NCBI GenBank assembly: GCA_038231275.1
Contig: JBBRLQ010000008.1
Span: forward strand, 192,001 to 256,000
DNA from: Polyangiales bacterium
GTDB taxonomy: Bacteria; Myxococcota_A; Polyangia; Polyangiales; Polyangiaceae
Length of the DNA stretch: 64,000 nt
Reading direction: 5' to 3'
Below, one piece after another: positions 30,557-52,409 of the stretch. Each line of letters opens with the position of its first letter. The stretch's first letter is position 1. The position numbers were made by a program, and so were the translations under genes. The notes under the pieces are model-generated. The model saw nothing but the letters and a program-made list of their open reading frames with translations, made no database searches and had not been told where the DNA came from.

Positions 30557-32521
<1,965 letters not shown>

Positions 32522-32530
32522 GGTCTTCGA

Positions 32531-32634
32531 CGTCTCCAGACGCCCATCGCGCTTTGCGCGATTCGCCGACAGGCGATGGGGGGAGGCTCACGCCGAAGGC
32601 GTGAGGGGGCCCTCGGCCCCACCAGACGAAGGTA
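32531..32634 (+). repeat. structured multi-hairpin element, family A copy 1 (3' of ptsI)
   Basis: Four hairpins plus conserved GGGGGAGGCTCACG and CCCCACCAGrCGAAGGTA blocks shared with 47912-48027. Confidence 0.8.
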
Positions 32635-32640
32635 AACATG

Positions 32641-32681
32641 AAGTCGCCTTCAACGATTCTCCGAATCGTTGAAGGCGACTT
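32641..32681. repeat. perfect 19-bp inverted repeat with 3-nt loop
   Basis: AAGTCGCCTTCAACGATTC-TCC-GAATCGTTGAAGGCGACTT. Confidence 0.95.
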
Positions 32682-32701
32682 GATGTAACTTCCGCCCCCG
32701 C

Positions 32702-36669: not shown

Positions 36670-38511
36670 ATGCGCTCTGCCCGCCTCCATTCCGCCCTCC
36701 CCAACCTCGCCTTCGTCGCGGCGTTCTGCGTGCCCGGGCTCGCGCTCGCGCAGGCCCCGACCGCCAATCCGCCGGCCACGTCGGCGACGCCCACGACGCC
36801 GACGACGCCCGCGAGCGGTGTCTCTGCGACCGGGAGCTCGTCCGTGCAGATCGGCACGGGGGCGCAGACCGACACGGCCGCGGGGACCACTGGCGACGTG
36901 AAGCCCGGCGACGCGAACCCCACCGACGTGACGCCGAAGCCGGACCCCGACACGACCGGCTCGGCCGGCGCGCGCGCCGTCGGCATGGCGCCGCCCGGCG
37001 TGAACCCTGGCAACTTCATGGACACGCGCCTGTCGTGGACCTTCGGCGACGACGACTTCCTCCACCGCACGGGCGAGCTCGTGCCGCTCTCGCCGACGTT
37101 CTCGGTCGGCGATCGCTCGCAGTATCGCCTCTTCTTCGACAACCTGAACTCGCGCTTCAGCGGTCGTGAGAACCTCACGCACCTCGTCATGTACAAGAAG
37201 ATGCCGGGCTTCATCGACCGGCTCACCACCGAGGCGGCGCTCGTCCTGCGGTTCGACATGGCGAACCTGTCGGCCAACACCGGCAACCTGAACTCCGCGC
37301 TCTACGACGCGGGCTCGTACATCCGCATCTTCTACAACACGAACACCAACCGCGAGAAGGAGGGCATCAGCGCCGTCTTCTTCCCGCTCGACACCGACCG
37401 CTTCCGCCTCGGCTACCTCTACGACATCTCGTGGGGCGGCACCGCGGCGTCGATCAACCAGTCCATTTTCCCGCGCATCCAGGGCGCCTCGCCCGGCATG
37501 AAGGTGCAGTTCGACGGCGACGGCTACTACGCGTTCGCCGGCTTCAAGACTGCGACGATCATCCAGCCGCAGCAGATCTTGAACAGCGGCACCACGAGCG
37601 ACGTCGAGCTCACGCGCGTCGGCGAGACGAACTTCGGCGGCCTCATCGGCGGCGGCGCGGACATCACGAAACACTTCCGCTTCGACGCGGGCGGCGGCTG
37701 GTTCCAGCAGGGCAAGTTCGACCTAGACGACGTCCGCGGAAAATCCGTTTACACACGCGGCCTCTCGGGTCGCTTCGTCGCGCACAAGGACATGCCGGTC
37801 CCGCAGTCGGTCGACTTCCTCCTCTATCGGAACGATCCGATGAAGCCGATGGTGCTGTTCGCACCGGAAGTCTATAACCCCAACGAGCTGGCCTACAGCG
37901 TGAGCGTCGAGGGGAGCTACCTCCTCCAGCACCTGAAGGACTTCGACAACGCGGGGCAGACGAAGGACCAGGGCGCGGCGGCGCTGGCGATCCAGGGCGT
38001 CGTGAAGGCCGGCTACGCGCGCTTCAGCGCGACCGGCATCACGCGCAACCTGAACTACGTCGTCCGCAACGTCCCCGGCTTCATCCCGTTCGAGACGTTG
38101 CCCGGCAACGTGAAGACGGACCCCGAGCTCTTCGGCGCGCTCGCCGCGGACTACCACATCGCGAAGCTGAAGCTGACCCCGGGCATCGCGGGCGGCATCC
38201 AACTCCCCTCGACGTTCAAGAGCGAGTTCACCGACGGCGGCGTGCCGGCGTCGCGCACGATCGTCGTCCGCCAGCAGGGCGACGAGTCGATCCTCCCGTA
38301 CAACAAGGACCGAACCGCGATTTACCAGATGCGCCTCAGCGTGCGCTGGCAGCTCTCCGAGATCCTCCAGGTCGTGGGGTGGGCCCAGTACGTGCGCGAC
38401 AACAACGCCACGCGTGTGGAGCGTGATCGTGTCGACGGCACGGCGTCCTTGCGTGTCTTCCAGAGCCCGGACCGCCTCGGCGTCGGGACGTCCATTCAAG
38501 CGCGGTTCTAG
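36670..38511 (+). CDS. putative outer-membrane beta-barrel protein
   Basis: Sec signal (LALA-Q), T/P-rich linker, alternating amphipathic strands, C-terminal TSIQARF beta-signal. Confidence 0.75.
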   Translation: MRSARLHSALPNLAFVAAFCVPGLALAQAPTANPPATSATPTTPTTPASGVSATGSSSVQIGTGAQTDTAAGTTGDVKPGDANPTDVTPKPDPDTTGSAGARAVGMAPPGVNPGNFMDTRLSWTFGDDDFLHRTGELVPLSPTFSVGDRSQYRLFFDNLNSRFSGRENLTHLVMYKKMPGFIDRLTTEAALVLRFDMANLSANTGNLNSALYDAGSYIRIFYNTNTNREKEGISAVFFPLDTDRFRLGYLYDISWGGTAASINQSIFPRIQGASPGMKVQFDGDGYYAFAGFKTATIIQPQQILNSGTTSDVELTRVGETNFGGLIGGGADITKHFRFDAGGGWFQQGKFDLDDVRGKSVYTRGLSGRFVAHKDMPVPQSVDFLLYRNDPMKPMVLFAPEVYNPNELAYSVSVEGSYLLQHLKDFDNAGQTKDQGAAALAIQGVVKAGYARFSATGITRNLNYVVRNVPGFIPFETLPGNVKTDPELFGALAADYHIAKLKLTPGIAGGIQLPSTFKSEFTDGGVPASRTIVVRQQGDESILPYNKDRTAIYQMRLSVRWQLSEILQVVGWAQYVRDNNATRVERDRVDGTASLRVFQSPDRLGVGTSIQARF

Positions 38512-38647
38512 GATCGGTACCGACGGAATCGACGAGTTCGCGAAGGCCGTCCACTGCGGAAACGGGGCCAAGATGCGCTCCGCGAATGCGTGCGTGTCTG
38601 GTGGTAGACACGCTCACAACTTCGATCGTGACGCTCGCATAAGCTCG

Positions 38648-39460
38648 TCAGGGGCAGGCGACGTCCACATTCGGACCGTTGGGTGTGCCGATGTAGAGGC
38701 CGCCGTACGTCTGGCTCGGATAGCGCCAACTGGACCACGTCGTGCGGGCCGAAGGTGCGCACGACGCGGGAAATTCCAAGCTCGCGCCCGGCAACCACGG
38801 CAACGTCGTGTCATAGGTAATCGAATCGAGGAGGACGCCGCCGATCGAGAGAGCCACGGTGTCACCGGAGTTCTTCAATGCGTCGCCGACGCTTCCTTGC
38901 CACGCGAGCACCATGCCGCTCAGACCGTGATTGATGGTCGCGTCCGTGCTATCCGCGACGAGAAACGAGCCCCCCCCCGCCAGGTAGGTATCGCTCGTAA
39001 CGTCGACTGTGTCCGACGTTGGCCCACGCGGTGACTCGACGTGCAGGCCGCGCAGGTTGAGGCGGCACGCACGGGTGCTCTTCACTTCCAACCACTCGCC
39101 GTGGTCACCGCTGCCCGACTGCGAAGCGACCATGAGCTCTACGATGACGAGGTCGCCGGGGGCGAGCGAAGCGCAATCCACCGGCCCCGTGTCCGCCGCT
39201 CCGTCGGCGGGGGCTTCGGAGTCGGTCGCGCCGTCGCGGGCTGGCGGAGGCGGCGCCGTGTCCTCGATGCCGCTGTCCAGAGAGCGGCCAGCCTCCTGAC
39301 CGATGCCGCCGTCTCGCAGAACCCGCCCGCCAGCGTCGGTCGCCGCGTTCTGATCATCTGGAGATGTCGCGGGGCGAAGATCGTCGAGATCACTTCCGCC
39401 GAGGATCTGCGCGCATCCGCCGAGGAGGCTCGCGGCCGCGAGCAAGAGGGGGGCGCGCAT
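38648..39460 (-). CDS. lamin-tail-domain lipoprotein
   Basis: LGGC lipobox; GDLVIVELM..GEWLEV..NLRGL..LKNSGDTVAL..GTPNGPN. Confidence 0.82.
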   Translation of the reverse strand: MRAPLLLAAASLLGGCAQILGGSDLDDLRPATSPDDQNAATDAGGRVLRDGGIGQEAGRSLDSGIEDTAPPPPARDGATDSEAPADGAADTGPVDCASLAPGDLVIVELMVASQSGSGDHGEWLEVKSTRACRLNLRGLHVESPRGPTSDTVDVTSDTYLAGGGSFLVADSTDATINHGLSGMVLAWQGSVGDALKNSGDTVALSIGGVLLDSITYDTTLPWLPGASLEFPASCAPSARTTWSSWRYPSQTYGGLYIGTPNGPNVDVACP

Positions 39461-40482
39461 CAGAACGACCCCGAAGCGCCGAAGCCGCCGCCGCCCGCGA
39501 AGACGAGGGGACGAAACGAAGCAAACTGCCTGGGCGATTCCTTCGAAGTGACGACGAGCAGGGTTCCGGCGCCGATCCCAGCGGCGCCCAGGACGATGCC
39601 GAGCGTGCTCATGAGCGACAGCGTTCGAAACCGCTCCGCGGAGGCCAAACCTTGCTCGTCACACACGTGCGCGGCGCTGCAATGGTCCAGCGCCTCGCCC
39701 TTCTGTCGAATGGCGAGGAGCCCCGCCGCGCTGCCCGCGACGAGCACGGTGATGCCTGTCCCCAACGTGATCCAGCCCGCGACGCGTGCCGTCGAGGGCG
39801 AAGCTGCGCGACCGGACGCAATGCCGTCGACAGGCGCACCCGCGGGCGGCAGGCGCGCCGCGGGCGGCGGTGGCACGGCTGACACACCCGGATCGAGTGG
39901 CGTGGGCGCGACGACGACCTCGCGCGTCTCACCGTCTCGTAGATCGATAGCCTGGGCGCGCTCTCTCCGCTCGGCAGCGCGGACCACGAGGGTGTGCTTG
40001 CCCGGGTTGGCGCGTACGGCATGCTCGAGCGGCACCGGCGTCCCGTCGATCAGCACGCCCGTCCCCTCCGGCGATCCCGGCTCGAGTGAGACGGTCACAT
40101 GCGCCAAACGCCGCTCCATTCGGGCCGCCTGCTCCAGGACGAGAGGGCCGCGATCGTCGCCCGGCGTGAGCATCGCCGAGAGCCGCTCGATCTTCGCGAG
40201 AGCGCCGAGAAGGTCCCCGGCGTGCTCATCGCATTGAACCAGGTTGAAGAGCGTCCCCGCGGCAGGGTCGAGGCGCATGCTCTCCTCGAACTTCGGGCAC
40301 GCGGTCGCGAAGTCTCCGCGACCTACGGCCTCGCGCCCTCCGCGAAATAGAGCGTCGGCCGCGGCCTTCTCCGCCGCCTTGTCACCAGCGCGCGCGTCGG
40401 CGAGCGCGACCAGCGGCCCAATCGTGAGGACGAGAGCACACGCCGCGAAACGGCAACGCTTGGACTTATTCTCGGCGGTCAT
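39460..40482 (-). CDS. TPR / PEGA-like domain membrane protein
   Basis: ADALFRGG..ACPKFEESMRLDPAAGTLFNL TPR; VLIDG..NPGKHTL PEGA-like; C-terminal hydrophobic hairpins. Confidence 0.82.
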   Translation of the reverse strand: MTAENKSKRCRFAACALVLTIGPLVALADARAGDKAAEKAAADALFRGGREAVGRGDFATACPKFEESMRLDPAAGTLFNLVQCDEHAGDLLGALAKIERLSAMLTPGDDRGPLVLEQAARMERRLAHVTVSLEPGSPEGTGVLIDGTPVPLEHAVRANPGKHTLVVRAAERRERAQAIDLRDGETREVVVAPTPLDPGVSAVPPPPAARLPPAGAPVDGIASGRAASPSTARVAGWITLGTGITVLVAGSAAGLLAIRQKGEALDHCSAAHVCDEQGLASAERFRTLSLMSTLGIVLGAAGIGAGTLLVVTSKESPRQFASFRPLVFAGGGGFGASGSF

Positions 40483-42064
40483 AGGGGTTCACTCGAACGA
40501 GGGGCCCGCCCGTCGCGCGCTTCGCGGCAGGAGTGGACGTTGGTGGAGCGGCCACCGCGTCACGTGGGGCCGTCGGCATCCCGTGCTCGGCGACGTGGCC
40601 GCGGCGGCTTTTCATGTTGGTCGTCGCGCGCGCCGGCTCGGGAATGGGGATGCTCCGTGACGCGAGCGCGACGTCGTCAACGCGAGCCGGCCGCTCGGGT
40701 CGTGGGACGATGACAGCATCTCCCGGTGAAACAAGCGCCGGAGCCGAGACCATCGCAGAGTCCGTTGCGGCACCACCTGGTATCCTCGCGTCGCCGATCT
40801 CGTCGTCCACGAAGAAGCGTCCCGCGCCGAACGCAAATAGCATGAGCGCCACCGAGCCCGCGGCGGCGATGGCGGCCGTCGCACGTACCGACGGCGGCGC
40901 GAATCCCGCCTGAGCGGACGGGGCGAGGGCATGACCCGCTGCGCGTGAAGTACCAGACGCGAAGAGCGGATTCATGCTCGCTTCCGCCGGCACTGGCACC
41001 GGTGCCGCCGCCGCGGGAGGCATCACCAACGTGGCTCCGAGGTCCTCCAGGACCGGCCGAACGGCGATGGCCGCGTCGTCGATGGGCTCCTTCGAAGCTT
41101 CGGCTTCCTGCTGAAGGGTCGTGCGCGCGGCGGACACGGCTTCCAACATCGCTTTCGCGGCGGCCCAGCGATCGCTTTTCTCGAAGGCGAGAGCACGGGA
41201 GACGAGCTCCGCCACATACCGAGGGACACCGGGGCAAGCCGTCGCCGGGTCCGCAGGCTGCTCGGTCAGGGAAGCGGCGGCGGCGAGCTTGTCCGCGTCG
41301 GTACGGCGCGGTGACCTCCCGGTGAGCATGGCATGGAGGACCGCTCCACACGCGTAGACATCAGATCGGGGATCGACGTCCGAGAGAGTGCCGCGCGCCA
41401 GCTCCGGCGACATGAAGTCCGTGCGACCGAAAGCCGCGGCCAAAGGCGCGCCCTGCCCCGGCGCGCAACGCGCCGCACACTCCGCGACCGCCGCGCTGCC
41501 AAAGTCGATCACCTTGATCCTGCCGTCGGAGAGTCGGACCACGTTCCTTGGTGCGAGGTCGCGGTGTTGAATTCCTTGCGCATGCGCGACGTCGAGCACG
41601 TCGAGCACGTGCCACGCGATTCTGAGCGCTTCGTCGACGGGCAGAGGGCCAGACGTCTCGAGGATCTCGTCTACAGTTTGCCCCTCCAGCATTTCCAACA
41701 CGAGAAAGACCGCACCTCCCTCCGCGACGTCATCGTCGAGCACACGCACGACTCCCTCGTGCGGTACGAGGTTCCCGGCGTACCCCTCCCGCAGAAACGT
41801 AGCGCGCACGGTGGGGTCCGCCGCGAGCAACGGATGCATCATCTTCAAGATGGCTCGACTTCGGTTGCGATGCGTCGCCACATAGACCGCCGACGTCGCG
41901 CCCGCGCCCAGGAGGTGGTCGAGGCGCCATTTCCCCCCGACGAGCCGGCCGACGCGCTCGCCGGCATGCTCGCGAAGGACGATGCGCGAGTCGGACGCGG
42001 CAAGGCTCGGGAACGGGGCGGTGGTCGTGGCGTTGTCGGGAGGGTTCTCGGCGCGCGTTTCCAT
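40466..42064 (-). CDS. atypical eukaryote-like protein kinase
   Basis: GAGATS, AILK, HRDLAPRN, DFG, GRTDFMSPE; TM helix near the C-terminus. Confidence 0.85.
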   Translation of the reverse strand: METRAENPPDNATTTAPFPSLAASDSRIVLREHAGERVGRLVGGKWRLDHLLGAGATSAVYVATHRNRSRAILKMMHPLLAADPTVRATFLREGYAGNLVPHEGVVRVLDDDVAEGGAVFLVLEMLEGQTVDEILETSGPLPVDEALRIAWHVLDVLDVAHAQGIQHRDLAPRNVVRLSDGRIKVIDFGSAAVAECAARCAPGQGAPLAAAFGRTDFMSPELARGTLSDVDPRSDVYACGAVLHAMLTGRSPRRTDADKLAAAASLTEQPADPATACPGVPRYVAELVSRALAFEKSDRWAAAKAMLEAVSAARTTLQQEAEASKEPIDDAAIAVRPVLEDLGATLVMPPAAAAPVPVPAEASMNPLFASGTSRAAGHALAPSAQAGFAPPSVRATAAIAAAGSVALMLFAFGAGRFFVDDEIGDARIPGGAATDSAMVSAPALVSPGDAVIVPRPERPARVDDVALASRSIPIPEPARATTNMKSRRGHVAEHGMPTAPRDAVAAPPTSTPAAKRATGGPLVRVNPYDRRE

Positions 42065-42215
42065 GGGTGCCTCGTCTTACGTCGCCGGCGGGTGCTTTCC
42101 TGCCCGCCACGCCACGCGCGCATCTATGGGTATTTGCGAGGAAATGACCGTCGATCCACCCGATACTTTCGCCGCGCGGGCCTCCGCATGGAGGTCTAGT
42201 CGCTCCCTGCGCCCG

Positions 42216-43121
42216 TCACCAAAGGAGCGCGCGGATCGCGAGGTCCACGAGATCCTCGGTGAGGTCGACGCGGCGGCGAAAGTCGGTCGTCTCGCGCAAC
42301 GACTCGTTCATCATTGCGACGTGGGCGGCGGCCTGGGCTTTCTTGAAGTGTTCGTCGCGTGCGGCCTCGCGGTCGCGATCGCGCGCCGCGAGCTGCTTCT
42401 TCGCAAGCTCGAGGCCGCCGCTGGCGACCCACTCGACCGCTTGCGTGAGCTCGCCGGAATCGAACCAGGTTCCGTGTAGTTTGCATACGTCGACGACGAC
42501 TCCGCTCTTTCGGCCGAAATTCACGCGGTTCATCGGCTGGTGGCACTGCGGGCACTTCAGGTAGCGGACCGCGCCCTCCTCGACGGCGTGGCGCGCGCGC
42601 TCGAACGGGCGCGCGTCCTTCACCGGCAAAGGGCCGCTCGTCTCGCGCTCCTCGACGATTCGCGCGAGCGACGCGTGGTCGACGAAGACGCCGCCGCACG
42701 CGGAGCACTCGACGAGGCCGCGATCACCGAGCGTCGAGAGCTTACCCTCGCAGCGCGGGCACGGCGCGCCGGCCGGGTCGAGGAGCGGCTCGAGCTCGAG
42801 CGCGTGGCCACACCGGGCACACGCGCGATCGCCGGTCTTCTGGAGCGCGAAGCAGGTCGGGCAGCGTACCTTGGAGAGGCGGACCTCGCAGTGGGGGCAG
42901 GTGGCGATGCTTGGCGGGCACATGCCTCCACAAAACGGGCACGCGATCTCCGGAGACTCGAGGATCGGGCGATCCTCCGCCGCGCGGTACGGGCTGGCGC
43001 TCTTGGCCTGAACGGGCGCCTGCGCGCTCGCACGGTTTTCGACGCCGCACGACGCGCAGCGGACGAGGCCGCCGGGGAAGACATGCACCTCGAGCTCGGC
43101 GTCGCACCCCGCGCAGCGCAT
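42216..43121 (-). CDS. multi zinc-ribbon protein (double zinc ribbon plus zf-TFIIB-like)
   Basis: Many CxxC pairs; CPQC..MNR..VDVCKLHGTWFDSGEL. Confidence 0.85.
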   Translation of the reverse strand: MRCAGCDAELEVHVFPGGLVRCASCGVENRASAQAPVQAKSASPYRAAEDRPILESPEIACPFCGGMCPPSIATCPHCEVRLSKVRCPTCFALQKTGDRACARCGHALELEPLLDPAGAPCPRCEGKLSTLGDRGLVECSACGGVFVDHASLARIVEERETSGPLPVKDARPFERARHAVEEGAVRYLKCPQCHQPMNRVNFGRKSGVVVDVCKLHGTWFDSGELTQAVEWVASGGLELAKKQLAARDRDREAARDEHFKKAQAAAHVAMMNESLRETTDFRRRVDLTEDLVDLAIRALLW

Positions 43122-45655: not shown

Positions 45656-47899
45656 ATGGCCTTCGTCCGCGAATCCGTCCTCATCAACGGCAAGCCCCTC
45701 ACCTTCGAGACCGGCCGCCTCGCCAAGCAGGCGCACGGCTCGATCCTCATCAGCTACGGCGAGAGCATGGTCCTCGTCACCGCGGTCAGCGGCGAAGAGC
45801 GCCCCGGTCTCGATTTCTTTCCGCTCACCTGCGAGTACGTCGAGAAGACGTTCGCGGCCGGCAAGATCCCCGGCGGCTTCTTCAAGCGCGAGGCGCGCCA
45901 GCGCGACGAGGAGATCCTCACCTGCAGGTTGATGGACCGCCCGTGCCGCCCGCTCTTCCCCGAGGGGTACCGCAACGACACGCAGGTCATCGCGACCGTG
46001 CTGTCGGCCGACAAGGTCCACCAGACCGACGTGCTCGCCGTCACCGGCGCGAGCGCCGCGCTCCACATCTCGGACATCCCGTGGGCGGGTCCGCTCGCCG
46101 CCATCCGCGTCGCGCGCGTCTCCGGTGAGCTCATCGTCTTCCCGACGTTCGAGCAGCAGGCCGCCGCCGACATCGACATGGTCGTCGCGTGCACGAAGGA
46201 CGCGATCTGCATGGTCGAGGGCGGCGCCGCCGAGGCGAGCGAGGCCGACCTCATCGACGCGCTCTTCTTCGCGCACCGCGCCGCGCAGCCGGTCCTCGAG
46301 CTCATCGAGAAGCTCCGCGCCGCCGTCGGCAAGACCAAGCGCGTGTGGGAGCCCAAGGTCCTCGACGCCGCCATCGCGAAGCGGGTGGCGGATCTGTGCG
46401 ACAAGGGCATCATCGAGTCGTCGCTCATCAAGGACAAGAAGGCCCGCTACGACGGCTACAAGGCCACCAAGACCAAGATGGTCGAGACGCTCACCGCCGA
46501 GATCGGCGCCGAGAAGTTCGCGGCCAACGAGAAGCTCATCAAGGGCGAGTTCGACGAGCGCAAATACGTCGTCGTCCGCGAGTACGTCCTCACCGAGAAG
46601 AAGCGCATCGACGGCCGCGACAGCAAGACGATCCGCGCGATCGCCACCGAGGTCTCGATCCTCCCGCGCGTGCACGGCTCCGCGCTCTTCCAGCGCGGCG
46701 AGACGCAGGCCATCGTCACCACGACCCTCGGCACTTCGGCCGACGAGCAGAAGATCGACGCGCTCACCGGCGAGCGGTGGAAGCGCTTCCTCCTCCACTA
46801 CAACTTCCCGCCCTTCTCGACTGGCGAGACCAAGCCGATGCGCGGCCCCGGTCGTCGCGAGATCGGCCACGGCGCCCTCGCCGAGCGCGCGCTCTTGCGC
46901 ATGATCCCGGAGCAGGAGAAGTTCCCGTACACGATCCGCATCGTGAGCGAGACGCTCGAGTCGAACGGCAGCTCGTCGATGGCGGCGGTCTGCGGCGGCA
47001 CGATGTCGATGATGGACGCCGGCGTCCCGATCAAGTCGCCGGTCGCGGGCATCGCGATGGGCCTCATCTCCGACGGCAAGCGCACGGCGATCCTGAGCGA
47101 CATCCTCGGCGACGAAGATCACCTCGGCGACATGGACTTCAAGGTCTGCGGGACCACGAAGGGCATCACCGCGATCCAGATGGACATCAAGATCGCCGGG
47201 CTCTCCCGCGAGATCATGACGCAGGCGCTCGACCAGGCTCGCGACGGCCGCATCCACATCCTCGGCAAGATGCTCGAGACGCTCGACCAGCCGCGCGCCG
47301 ACCTATCGAAGTACGCACCGCGCATCACCACCCTCAAGGTGAAGCCCGATCAGATCCGCCTCGTCATCGGACCCGGCGGCAAGACGATCAAGGGCATCAT
47401 CGACCAGACCGGCGTAGCGATCGACGTCGAGGACGACGGTACGGTCAACGTGGCCTCGAGCGATCCGGAGGCCGTGAAGAAGGCCCTCGACATCATCAGG
47501 GGCCTGACCGCGGAGCCGGAGGTCGGCGCCACGTACAAGGGCGCCGTCCAGCGCATCACCGACTTCGGCGCGTTCGTCGAGCTCCTCCCGGGGACCGACG
47601 GCCTGCTCCACATCTCGGAGATGGCGCACACGCGCGTCGACAAGGTCACCGACGTGATGAAGGAAGGCGACATCGTCGAGGTGAAGGTCCTCTCCGTCGA
47701 TCGCGACGGCAAGGTCCGCCTCACGCGTCGCGAGCTCCTCCCCTTGCCGGAAGGCGAAGAGGGCGAGCGCGCGAAGGAGCGCATGCTCGCGGCCCGCGAG
47801 TCGGGCGGAGCGCCTCCGCGCCGCAGCGGCGGGGGGGATCGTGATCGCGGGCCGCGGGGTGGTGGCGACAGGGGCGGGCCTAGGGGCCCGCGGCGGTAA
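45656..47899 (+). CDS. pnp: polyribonucleotide nucleotidyltransferase
   Basis: ETGRLAKQA, IPGGFFKRE, RREIGHG, SNGSSSMA, EDHLGDMDFK, KH and S1 domains. Confidence 0.99.
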   Translation: MAFVRESVLINGKPLTFETGRLAKQAHGSILISYGESMVLVTAVSGEERPGLDFFPLTCEYVEKTFAAGKIPGGFFKREARQRDEEILTCRLMDRPCRPLFPEGYRNDTQVIATVLSADKVHQTDVLAVTGASAALHISDIPWAGPLAAIRVARVSGELIVFPTFEQQAAADIDMVVACTKDAICMVEGGAAEASEADLIDALFFAHRAAQPVLELIEKLRAAVGKTKRVWEPKVLDAAIAKRVADLCDKGIIESSLIKDKKARYDGYKATKTKMVETLTAEIGAEKFAANEKLIKGEFDERKYVVVREYVLTEKKRIDGRDSKTIRAIATEVSILPRVHGSALFQRGETQAIVTTTLGTSADEQKIDALTGERWKRFLLHYNFPPFSTGETKPMRGPGRREIGHGALAERALLRMIPEQEKFPYTIRIVSETLESNGSSSMAAVCGGTMSMMDAGVPIKSPVAGIAMGLISDGKRTAILSDILGDEDHLGDMDFKVCGTTKGITAIQMDIKIAGLSREIMTQALDQARDGRIHILGKMLETLDQPRADLSKYAPRITTLKVKPDQIRLVIGPGGKTIKGIIDQTGVAIDVEDDGTVNVASSDPEAVKKALDIIRGLTAEPEVGATYKGAVQRITDFGAFVELLPGTDGLLHISEMAHTRVDKVTDVMKEGDIVEVKVLSVDRDGKVRLTRRELLPLPEGEEGERAKERMLAARESGGAPPRRSGGGDRDRGPRGGGDRGGPRGPRR

Positions 47900-47911
47900 G
47901 GCTGCCGCCGC

Positions 47912-48027
47912 TACCTTCGCCTGGTGGGGGACCTTGCGGTCCCCCCTCACGAGCGTTTCGCTCGTGAGCCTCCCCCGCGCGTCGCGTTGCGAGGTCGTGC
48001 TTCGCACGACGGGGCGGGAGGGAGACG
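47912..48027 (-). repeat. structured multi-hairpin element, family A copy 2
   Basis: Reverse complement aligns to 32531-32634 with compensatory stem changes. Confidence 0.8.
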
Positions 48028-48030
48028 CGA

Positions 48031-49392
48031 CTAGCGTTTGGTTAGGATGAGGTAGCGCTTGCCGGATAGGCGGAGCGTCGACGTGACTTCGTAGCGTTCT
48101 CGGATGAGGGAAGATGCTAGGAGGCGGTCTTCGACGACGCGCGGGGGATCGTAGAAGACGAGTGCGTCGGGGTTGCGGGCCAGAAGGAACGCGGGGTCGA
48201 CGCGCTTGGAGGTGTGGCCGCCGGGGAGGACGGCGATGGTGGGATCGGTGAGGCCCGCGAGGTCCACGATCGTGGCCTCGGTGGCCGCCGAGAGCCAGCC
48301 CACGTCGAGGACGGCGACGATGTGTGCATCCTGCAACAATGGGCGCGCCGACGCGACGAGCTCTGCGCGATCTCGGCCGACGTGGCGGCCTGCCGGCGCG
48401 GCGACGACGTCGATGTAGATCTCGAAGCCGAGCGCCAAGGCGGAGCGGACGGCGAGGCTCCACCGGCGCGCGTGGGGGGCGAGGAGGACCGACGCGAGCA
48501 GCAGCGACGGCGCGATGGGGACGAGGAGGCGCGCGTACGGCATCCAGTCACCACCGACCGCCGCGACGACGAGGACGTGAACGAAGCCGGCAACGGCGAG
48601 CGCGCGGGCCTCTCGCGACGCGCCTTTGAGCGCCCGCGGCGCCAAGGCGAGCAGCGGGCCGCCCGTGACGAGCGCCGCAACGAAGGCGTACGTGACGCCG
48701 TGGTCGAGATCGCTCGGCTTCGCGAGGACCGCCAAGGGCGCCGCACGTCCGAAGCAGACGAGCCGCACGAGCACGCACGCGGCGAACGGCGCGAACGCCG
48801 CGAGGCCCGCCAGCGCGCGCGCGCGCGAGGTGCTCGCGAACAGGACTGCCAGCGCCACCGCCCATGGGGCCATCTCCGGGCGCAGCGACGCCGCGAGGCC
48901 GGCCACTACTGCCGCGCGCATGGGCCGGGCAGCGCTCGTGGCGGCCGTCGTCGCGAGCGCGAGCGCCAGCGCGGTTTCCATCCCGCTCACGGCGTGCGCG
49001 CCGATCGGCACACAAAGCGCGAGCGCGACGAACGCGACGATCTTTGCCGCGCGAGGCGCTGGCGCCGAGACGATGGCCGCGCCCCACGCCGCGGCGGCGG
49101 CGAGCCAGACGGCCAACCCCATGCACTTTGCACGCATCAGCACGTCGAGCGCGCTCCCGCCGGCCAGCGGCACCAGGAGCGGCGCCCATGGAAGTGGCGT
49201 CACGCCGTCGGTGGCGGCGCCTCCGGCATTGAAGACGTAGCCCTCGCCGGCGAGCAGATGGCGCGCGTACCGCACGGGAATGAGCGCGTCGTCGACGGTG
49301 AACCCCCACATTGCGATCGCCGGGATCGACGCCGCGACGATGCCGAGGATCGCCCCTAGCAAGGCGGGACGGGCGTGTCCAAATCCCTCCAT
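48031..49392 (-). CDS. polytopic membrane protein, probable GT-C glycosyltransferase (AftB-like)
   Basis: VDDALIPVRYARHLLAGEGYVFN, SGMET, RPE, GGDWMPYAR, DLAGLTDP.IA motifs; many TM helices. Confidence 0.7.
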   Translation of the reverse strand: MEGFGHARPALLGAILGIVAASIPAIAMWGFTVDDALIPVRYARHLLAGEGYVFNAGGAATDGVTPLPWAPLLVPLAGGSALDVLMRAKCMGLAVWLAAAAAWGAAIVSAPAPRAAKIVAFVALALCVPIGAHAVSGMETALALALATTAATSAARPMRAAVVAGLAASLRPEMAPWAVALAVLFASTSRARALAGLAAFAPFAACVLVRLVCFGRAAPLAVLAKPSDLDHGVTYAFVAALVTGGPLLALAPRALKGASREARALAVAGFVHVLVVAAVGGDWMPYARLLVPIAPSLLLASVLLAPHARRWSLAVRSALALGFEIYIDVVAAPAGRHVGRDRAELVASARPLLQDAHIVAVLDVGWLSAATEATIVDLAGLTDPTIAVLPGGHTSKRVDPAFLLARNPDALVFYDPPRVVEDRLLASSLIRERYEVTSTLRLSGKRYLILTKR

Positions 49393-49471
49393 CCTCCGCA
49401 GAAAACTACGTTCCGTCGCGCGCACTACCTACGATTCGTACTCGGCACGCCATCGGCGGGCCATCCAAAGA

Positions 49472-51922: not shown

Positions 51923-52348
51923 ATGCCCGATCGGCAGGTCTGCATCGACTGCGGGACGCTCTCTCCCGAGACGGAGACGAACTACACCCTCATCAGCTCC
52001 CAGTTCGGCTGGCGGCTGACGCGGACGCGTACGGCCGACGGCCAATTCAACATCGAATGGCGCTGCCCCGCGTGCTGGAAAGACCACAAGCGCGCGAAGC
52101 AAGCGACCGACGAAGCGCGCAACGCGACGAGCAGCATCCCCCCACCCTCGCCCGGGCGTCCCCTCCCGAGCTTCCCCTCGCGCCCGCCGCTCCCGGAAGA
52201 AGAGCCGACCCTCCAGCGCGCGGCCATCAGTCGACCGCCGACGCCGGGAGCGCCCCTCCGCCCCCGCACCGGCCCATCGTCGACGCCCGCCGACGGCTCT
52301 CCCATCCCCGGCCGCCTCCCCCCAAGCCGCCTGCCGCCGCGCCGCTGA
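51923..52348 (+). CDS. small zinc-finger protein with Pro-rich tail
   Basis: CIDC...WRCPACW then a P/S/R-rich tail. Confidence 0.7.
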   Translation: MPDRQVCIDCGTLSPETETNYTLISSQFGWRLTRTRTADGQFNIEWRCPACWKDHKRAKQATDEARNATSSIPPPSPGRPLPSFPSRPPLPEEEPTLQRAAISRPPTPGAPLRPRTGPSSTPADGSPIPGRLPPSRLPPRR

Positions 52349-52391
52349 TTGGAGCGAAGCGCAGCGGAGCGAAACGCTCCTGAAAGGCTGC
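52343..52391 (+). repeat. short dispersed palindromic repeat, family B copy 2
   Basis: CGCTGATTGGAGCGAAGCGCAGCGGAGCGAAACGCTC..GAAAGGCTGC. Confidence 0.8.
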
Positions 52392-52409
52392 ACGCGGCGC
52401 CGCGCGGCG

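Follow-up and report, generated by a model that had tools for sequence, protein, structure and literature searches.

What is a repeat of about 110 nucleotides that folds into a series of hairpins, lies directly after the stop codons of two genes and keeps its stems while their sequences change? Two copies of such a repeat lie in a stretch of 64,000 nucleotides from a Polyangiales bacterium (contig JBBRLQ010000008.1, positions 192,001 to 256,000; hereafter the window). A preliminary description, made from the letters alone, took them for either a structured RNA motif or a REP/REPIN-like element mobilised as single-stranded DNA. Our follow-up points elsewhere. With a probability that we put at roughly 85%, the repeat is a structured, ~110-nt subterminal end of an insertion sequence (IS) of the IS1182 family (DDE type), and it has multiplied mainly as a single-ended derivative that carries no transposase.

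Two copies in the window

Both copies, called A and B below, were found where they had been placed before, with every listed hairpin present (Table 1). Aligned pairwise, they have a mean column identity of 78% over 143 columns, and both are solo modules. The distance from the same-strand stop codon to the start of the 85-position core is 21 nt for copy A and 17 nt for copy B. A Pfam search with the gene ahead of the head of copy B returned no family at E ≤ 1e-5. The module is laid out as a pyrimidine-rich head, hairpins H1 and H2, the linker motif GGGGAGG, hairpins H3 and H4, and a tail of the form CCCAC-MAAAC-RAAGG; the head boundary is not sharply defined across the family.

Table 1. Features of the window that bear on the two copies (window coordinates; a dot marks a feature given without strand)
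Feature	Position	Strand	Evidence or remark
ptsI (PEP-utilising enzyme I)	30557..32521	+	ORF; Pfam PF02896, PF05524, PF00391
ptsI stop TGA	32519-32521	+	just upstream of copy A head
Copy A head, pyrimidine-rich leader CGTCTCC..CGCCC	32522..32545	+	sequence
Copy A core	32546..32620	+	fold; covariation of all four helices
Copy A H1	32546-32562	+	
Copy A H2	32563-32576	+	
Copy A G-rich linker with GGGGGAGG	32577-32586 (GGGGGAGG = 32579-32586)	+	
Copy A H3	32587-32605	+	
Copy A H4	32606-32620	+	
Copy A tail ACCAGACGAAGGTA, outward-pointing module end	32621..32634	+	conserved across copies
Copy A tail-side hairpin	32636..32686	.	arms 32636-32659 / 32663-32686, loop TCC
pnp	45656-47899		stop inside copy B tail-side hairpin; Pfam RNase_PH, KH, S1, PNPase domains
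Copy B tail-side hairpin	47890..47911	.	8 Watson-Crick pairs plus one G-T
Copy B, whole	47912..48030	-	covariance-model match G000:C8:239908-240027
Copy B tail	47925-47912	-	
Copy B H4	47945-47926	-	
Copy B H3	47968-47946	-	
Copy B GGGGGAGG	47976-47969	-	
Copy B H2	47992-47982	-	
Copy B H1	48010-47994	-	
Copy B head	48030-48011	-	
Gene ahead of copy B head	48031..49425	-	stop TAG 48033-48031 just before head
Empty site of G001 copy L240 (same genus)	52342..52402	.	59 nt of unrelated spacer; TGA stop vs TAA in G001

A conserved fold

Both copies fold better than expected. On the described strand the RNA folding z-scores are -3.6 (A) and -4.6 (B), with none of 200 dinucleotide shuffles as good; on the opposite strand they are -2.4 and -5.3, and as DNA both copies score between -4.3 and -5.6.

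Covariation was scored on 98 copies from 87 loci (seven genomes and three named assemblies), in an alignment that was fitted to the structure of the covariance model and favours that structure. The model has 112 positions and 24 pairs and was built from the copies found with nhmmer. Its structure was supplied by hand, because the consensus fold of a MAFFT-only alignment yielded no more than H1, the outer portion of H4 and a 3-pair helix that the model lacks. In the 98 copies 92.6% of the cells are paired (79.9% in shuffles), and 17 of the 24 pairs show changes on both sides, including all eight in H3. For covariation the score is 0.316, which none of 500 shuffles (0.115) reached; controls with slid partners score 0.046-0.081. 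Thus the compensatory changes that had been proposed from the two window copies are seen in all four helices of this structure-fitted alignment.

Could the module then chiefly serve its host, as a structured RNA kept by selection (a 3'-UTR stabiliser, a small RNA or part of a terminator), with any link to a transposase being secondary? The strong covariation speaks for this, as does the strand: by G-U pairs (124 vs 57) and folding energy, the plus strand is the better RNA in 85 of the 98 copies. This asymmetry fits selection on the RNA of one strand as well as it fits selection on DNA. Rfam offers no such RNA, with no match in the window at the gathering score, so that no Rfam family accounts for the repeat. 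A search of four loci at E ≤ 1 gave only four matches to miRNA families, at a chance-level 23-27 bits (gathering scores 68-88), and all of these fall on the hairpin that flanks copy A and none on the module.

A dispersed family within the Polyangia

The genome that hosts the window (G000) is a 9.28-Mb draft in 164 contigs with 69.2% GC. Iterated nhmmer searches find 42 copies in it at E ≤ 1e-3, and the covariance model finds at least 44, with 150 of some 26,000 first-look candidates scored. The pair in the window therefore belongs to a dispersed family with a conserved structure, and the earlier suspicion of a repeat of the mobile-element type, not a one-off, was well founded.

We searched 60 relatives with the covariance model. 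It matched six of 36 genomes of the same family (G001 with 43 copies, G002 with 34, G003 with 22, G015 with 6, G026 with 3 and G032 with 56) and none of 24 genomes from other families of the order. A further genome, G004, holds one diverged copy that the model overlooked. In a pattern scan of public assemblies the matches listed were mostly due to chance; among the first 100 loci of these, strong covariance-model scores were obtained for L113, L158, L170 and L172, from assemblies whose titles name Labilithrix, Polyangiaceae and Myxococcales. This places the hosts of the family in the Polyangia (Myxococcota).

In the flanks of L032 and L226, extra partial tails (CCCCACAAAC and similar) are repeated beside the copies, as if a single spot had been hit several times or partly duplicated in tandem.

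Filled and empty sites

Comparison of orthologous sites tells us whether the copies have moved. Among 25 loci of G001 compared with G000, seven are filled, eight are empty with both flanks aligned and ten have no clear assignment; the eight empty sites leave 3-114 nt between the aligned flanks, and one of them lies in the window (L240, Table 1). Four of five G002 loci are likewise empty in G000. All of these empty sites come from other species, at ~70-90% flank identity, and not from isogenic strains. Sister species thus differ in whether an orthologous site holds a copy, and the copies must be mobile or have been so until recently.

Copy A itself is an old insertion: G003, which belongs to another genus, is filled at the same ptsI site. 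Such persistence is also what one would expect of an RNA that serves the host. The patchy distribution of the family and the turnover of its sites within a genus argue against that role.

Some of the compared intervals differ by more than the module. Between flanks that enclose one copy in G001 (L223), G000 has ~3.7 kb (window positions 38509-42217; G000:C8:230509-234217), and between those of L222 it has 1.4 kb (G000:C29:83049-84467), with a weak partial nhmmer match at the edge of the interval (C29:83065-83118, E 0.8). The two flanks of L081 (G001:C121) map to separate G000 contigs, C1 and C7, which may reflect a break in synteny at the element or the way the contigs were assembled.

Modules beside IS1182-family transposases

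If the copies are mobile, which enzyme moved them? Four loci in three genomes place modules next to transposase genes, all of them truncated or decayed. At G015:C216 a minus-strand module, a 166-aa DDE remnant (PF01609, PF13751) and a plus-strand module follow one another; at G015:C200 the same arrangement encloses a 297-aa transposase ORF; and at G000:C27 it encloses the decayed remnant of a transposase C-terminus (66% identity, one TAG), with CTAG at both outer ends of the pair. At G001:C124 a minus-strand module is directly followed by an internally deleted transposase of 218 aa with DUF772 and DDE_Tnp_1_6 domains, which scores 170.9 bits against the IS1182 model NF033551. Overall, the proteins that adjoin modules carry DUF772, DDE_Tnp_1 and DDE_Tnp_1_6 and match NF033551. 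The starts of transposase genes are seen beside the heads of two copies, and at the transposase loci the tails point outward. Because modules adjoin or flank remnants of IS1182 transposases, we read the module as the subterminal end of one IS1182 lineage, with the tails as its outer tips.

G000 has a single full-length IS1182 element, G000:C94:171-1849, which is flanked by CTAG. Its transposase gene (G000:C94:236-1708) scores 336.8 bits, above the cut-off of 270, and the product is 44% identical to the G001:C124 transposase. The outermost sequence of this element, ACAGGCTC at the border with CTAG, is common to one module subfamily. Its left tip is 65 nt from the ORF, and this element gave no covariance-model match and is without a module. 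Across 61 draft genomes, a search with the 218-aa query found no intact transposase flanked by modules, and the same query had no match at E ≤ 1e-10 in G002, G003, G026 and G032, which do carry modules. Repeats are often left unassembled in draft genomes of this kind.

The parent IS would consist of two inverted modules, heads inward and tails outward, with the transposase gene between them. Head-to-head pairs would then be internally deleted, MITE-like copies of it. The four internal hairpins may form a structure that is read by the transposase or by a strand-specific intermediate, and the copies have very probably been moved in trans, now or formerly, by an IS1182-type transposase that reads stem-loops.

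Eight of the 44 copies in G000 form four pairs, all head-to-head, and the other 36 are solo. For the solo copies no second inverted end was found within 160 nt; three of 36 score above the 95th percentile of their own shuffles, about as many as chance would give. Around the heads of 96 copies the flanks are C/T-rich, and TAA, TAG and CTAG show no peak at a fixed distance. In the head flanks of L081, L229 and L237 (G001) there are long tracts that resemble CT/GA dinucleotide repeats, e.g. (CT)n of more than 30 nt. No direct repeat of the target site emerged from the comparison of filled and empty sites, and none was seen for solo copies; only at the C27 pair and the C94 IS does CTAG stand on both sides, where it looks like a 4-bp duplication.

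The family is small, non-coding, multicopy and polymorphic for insertion, as MITEs are. We rejected a full identification as MITEs, since inverted repeats at both ends and direct target duplications both fail for most copies.

The single-stranded mobility considered in the preliminary description would make the module a REP or REPIN, moved by a RAYT or by a Y1 transposase of the IS200/IS605 type. Like these, the module is a short, GC-rich, hairpin-forming intergenic repeat that is enriched between convergent genes and sometimes occurs in inverted pairs. Its hairpins are stable and many have GNA triloops, which are especially stable in DNA. G000 also has one strong match to Y1_Tnp (PF01797, C70:2681-3043, E 2.6e-38). 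Against this, a search of 37 genomes, with G026 and G032 outside it, found Y1_Tnp in G000 only and not in G001, G002, G003 or G015, i.e. in one of the five element-bearing genomes searched. Moreover, the module has no GTAG-type REP head; at ~110 nt and with four hairpins it is far larger than a REP (four times longer), and it is physically joined to remnants of IS1182 DDE transposases instead. We consider movement of this kind the least probable of all the explanations weighed here, and the REP/REPIN assignment had to be given up. SINE-like retroposition was dropped after the DDE link was found; the distribution of reverse transcriptases does not track the element.

Placement at gene ends

The preliminary description had both copies in sense orientation just after a stop codon. 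This is correct for the two window copies and fails as a rule for the family. With genes called in G000 by third-position GC (6,567 frames, 81% of the genome), only nine of 42 copies have a same-strand gene end within 100 nt of their head. It is the tail that has a preferred neighbour: in 34 of 42 copies it is turned towards the 3' terminus of an opposite-strand gene, at a distance of at most 65 nt in 27 of them.

Beside the tail there is usually a further hairpin. A near-perfect one lies within ~25 nt of the tail in 71 of the 91 copies whose flank is long enough. Within the main subfamily each locus has a different one, while other subfamilies have a conserved hairpin of their own, ending ...TTAG or ...CTA. 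In G000 the stop codon of the neighbouring gene often falls in the loop or the outer arm. Perfect hairpins of at least 10 bp that cover a stop codon or coding end are found at 13 of 39 gene ends near elements and at 10 of 5,101 others in this genome.

The window copies illustrate two forms of this. In copy B the outer arm (47890-47898) consists of the last pnp codons and the first two bases of the stop TAA (47897-47899), and the inner arm (47903-47911) is an inverted copy of it. The hairpin of copy A has 24-nt arms with 23 matched pairs and one mismatch, and no converging gene; the copy at the ptsI site of G003 has no counterpart of this hairpin.

Do the flank hairpin and the tail together make a terminator? 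In the sense of the neighbouring gene they can resemble an intrinsic one, which would again suit a host function. However, only 11 of the 71 hairpins are followed by at least five T in 8 nt (28 of 71 by at least four), and a consensus scan shows neither a terminator nor a promoter at either window copy. We have therefore rejected the intrinsic terminator. The orientation of the module to the upstream gene is also inconsistent. Taking these points with the turnover of sites described above, we judge a chiefly host-serving RNA very unlikely, and the subterminal end of an IS1182-family element remains our preferred reading of the module.

Built hairpins or targeted hairpins?

The origin of the tail-side hairpins admits two main explanations. 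Either the hairpin pre-existed, for example as the terminator of the gene, and was merely targeted in the manner of IS1272, with nothing built; or it was made during insertion from the target flank itself.

Orthologous sites bear on this most directly. At all three informative sites of the main subfamily the native coding end supplies the outer arm, and orthologues without the element lack the inner arm, which argues against a pre-existing hairpin. At L238 the final 15 nt of the gene form the outer arm and its stop TAG sits in the loop; the inner arm occurs only in the element-bearing G001, being missing from G000, G002, G015 and G032. L074 has the same pattern (inner arm missing from G000, G003 and G032), and at L223 the inner arm is missing from G000. 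In addition, the two tails of a head-to-head pair have different hairpins, each matching its own flank, so the hairpins are not a direct duplication of one target hairpin. The rarity of perfect stop-overlapping hairpins away from elements also counts against targets that were there beforehand, and 12-16 nt of coding sequence copied perfectly in inverted orientation must in any case have had a template.

Other sites favour targeting. A gene end that encodes …NIPL-stop is a hot spot: G001 and G002 have a hairpin with an element, and G000 has the same hairpin without one (C1:406658-406690). G032 and G004 hold other family members there, each with a hairpin of its own, and both hairpin and element are lacking in G003, G015 and G026. 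Judged by these outgroups, the hairpin of G000 is a derived feature, and this again tells against a pre-existing target. At L089 the site in G000, which lacks the element, shows a canonical hairpin and T tract, and G002 has the element with a different hairpin; the G000 terminator hairpin is gone from the filled site, i.e. it has been replaced. The conserved hairpins of several subfamilies also suit pre-existing targets, and so do the published target sites of IS1272 and TnSha1, which are pre-existing hairpins (PMC4923244, PMC5678879).

Four other stop-overlapping hairpins of G000 (C5:136299, C2:379001, C7:125338 and C9:241573) have no adjoining element in five relatives, which counts against hairpin-building. 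We rejected their origin as footprints of lost elements; the sole covariance-model match lies at the other end of the gene. A further weakness of the hairpin-building account is that every comparison is between species and none between strains.

How might an insertion make a hairpin? In the main subfamily the joint may be completed by fold-back copying of 9-24 nt of the target flank, a step that would build a new stem-loop over the stop codon of the neighbouring gene. The loops, 3-9 nt long and non-palindromic, are more in keeping with snap-back priming than with a covalent hairpin. The complete scheme would be as follows: a single IS1182-type end moves alone; 9-24 nt of flank, typically the last codons and the stop, are duplicated in inverted orientation to complete its insertion, so that a new stem-loop replaces the usual direct duplication; and the four hairpins are the signal for a stem-loop-specific transposase. 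We offer this scheme tentatively and, taken as a whole, lean against it. The opposite account, in which the tail-side hairpin was there first and nothing was built, is a serious contender, though one that falls somewhat short of an even chance. On the narrower question of hairpin-building alone, as against pre-existing target hairpins, the balance is close to even.

Comparison with described elements

In staphylococci two IS1182-family elements, IS1272 and TnSha1, are described as inserting at hairpins downstream of genes, several of which are confirmed terminators, with no sequence specificity and no target duplication; the family's transposases are reported there to recognise DNA stem-loops at gene ends and not a sequence, by a targeting mechanism that the same papers call unsolved (PMC5678879, PMC4923244). 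The likeness to our family is threefold: the same transposase family (NF033551), placement at stem-loops just 3' of genes, and no target duplication. Site L089 resembles their stem-loop replacement, the G000 terminator hairpin being absent from the filled G002 site. There are also differences. IS1272 has 16-bp terminal repeats, in contrast to a 110-nt module of four hairpins here, and pre-existing targets that are partly deleted, whereas our copies keep an intact hairpin beside the end, with an inner arm that is new at each informative site. A further contrast with IS1272 is that most copies of our family lack a transposase and consist of one end.

MITEPye1 of Paracoccus yeei is described as an IS1182-derived MITE with terminal repeats of 18 bp at both ends and direct repeats of 4 bp (PMC11578231), and ISPse1, of the same family, is listed with 16/16 repeats and a 4-bp duplication (PMC3281130). 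As described there, MITEPye1 is, like our module, a non-coding derivative that borrows IS1182-type ends, and the 4-bp repeats of both elements have their likeness in the CTAG on both sides of the G000:C27 pair and the C94 IS. Compared with these descriptions, the window copies differ in being single-ended and in having no detectable duplication.

IS1182-derived MITEs and the preference of IS1182-family elements for hairpins are thus already in print. New here are the long covarying four-hairpin end, its spread as a single end, and the flank-derived hairpins. A literature search found no description of these three features; it also found nothing on an 87-bp Myxococcus repeat and nothing relevant on MITEs of the Myxococcota.

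Implications

One use of this result is in annotation. An apparent new structured RNA has become an identified part of a mobile element, which helps the annotation of Polyangia genomes and keeps such repeats out of catalogues of non-coding RNAs. For students of transposition the family provides dozens of natural IS1182-type insertions in a distant phylum, featuring long ends built of covarying hairpins, single-ended copies and joints with a hairpin apparently made from the flank.

If hairpins are indeed built upon insertion, this transposon would create stem-loops that overlap stop codons at gene ends, and it could alter the 3' ends of mRNAs genome-wide. If single ends move and build hairpins as proposed, DDE transposition would have an outcome not described before, and new hairpins at gene ends would have a natural source.

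Other repeats in these genomes

Other mobile or repeated sequences were met at or near the sites compared. At site L074 the space between the convergent genes is occupied in G003 by another insertion, which has ~35-nt inverted repeats (L283, G003:C327). An unrelated MITE of the classical kind, whose terminal inverted repeats measure 32 bp, lies at G000:C5:136083-136219 (L285:234-370); it is missing at the same site of G001, and copies of it occur elsewhere in G001 and in G002.

G000 also has a second palindromic repeat, which is REP-like, GGCCTGACCGG..CCGGTCAGGCC. It is not found on C70, the contig with the only Y1 transposase gene. It lies just after stop codons, e.g. at C3:197321, C7:323534, C8:88652 and C10:132741, and its 11-mer occurs 57 times in G000, both strands counted.
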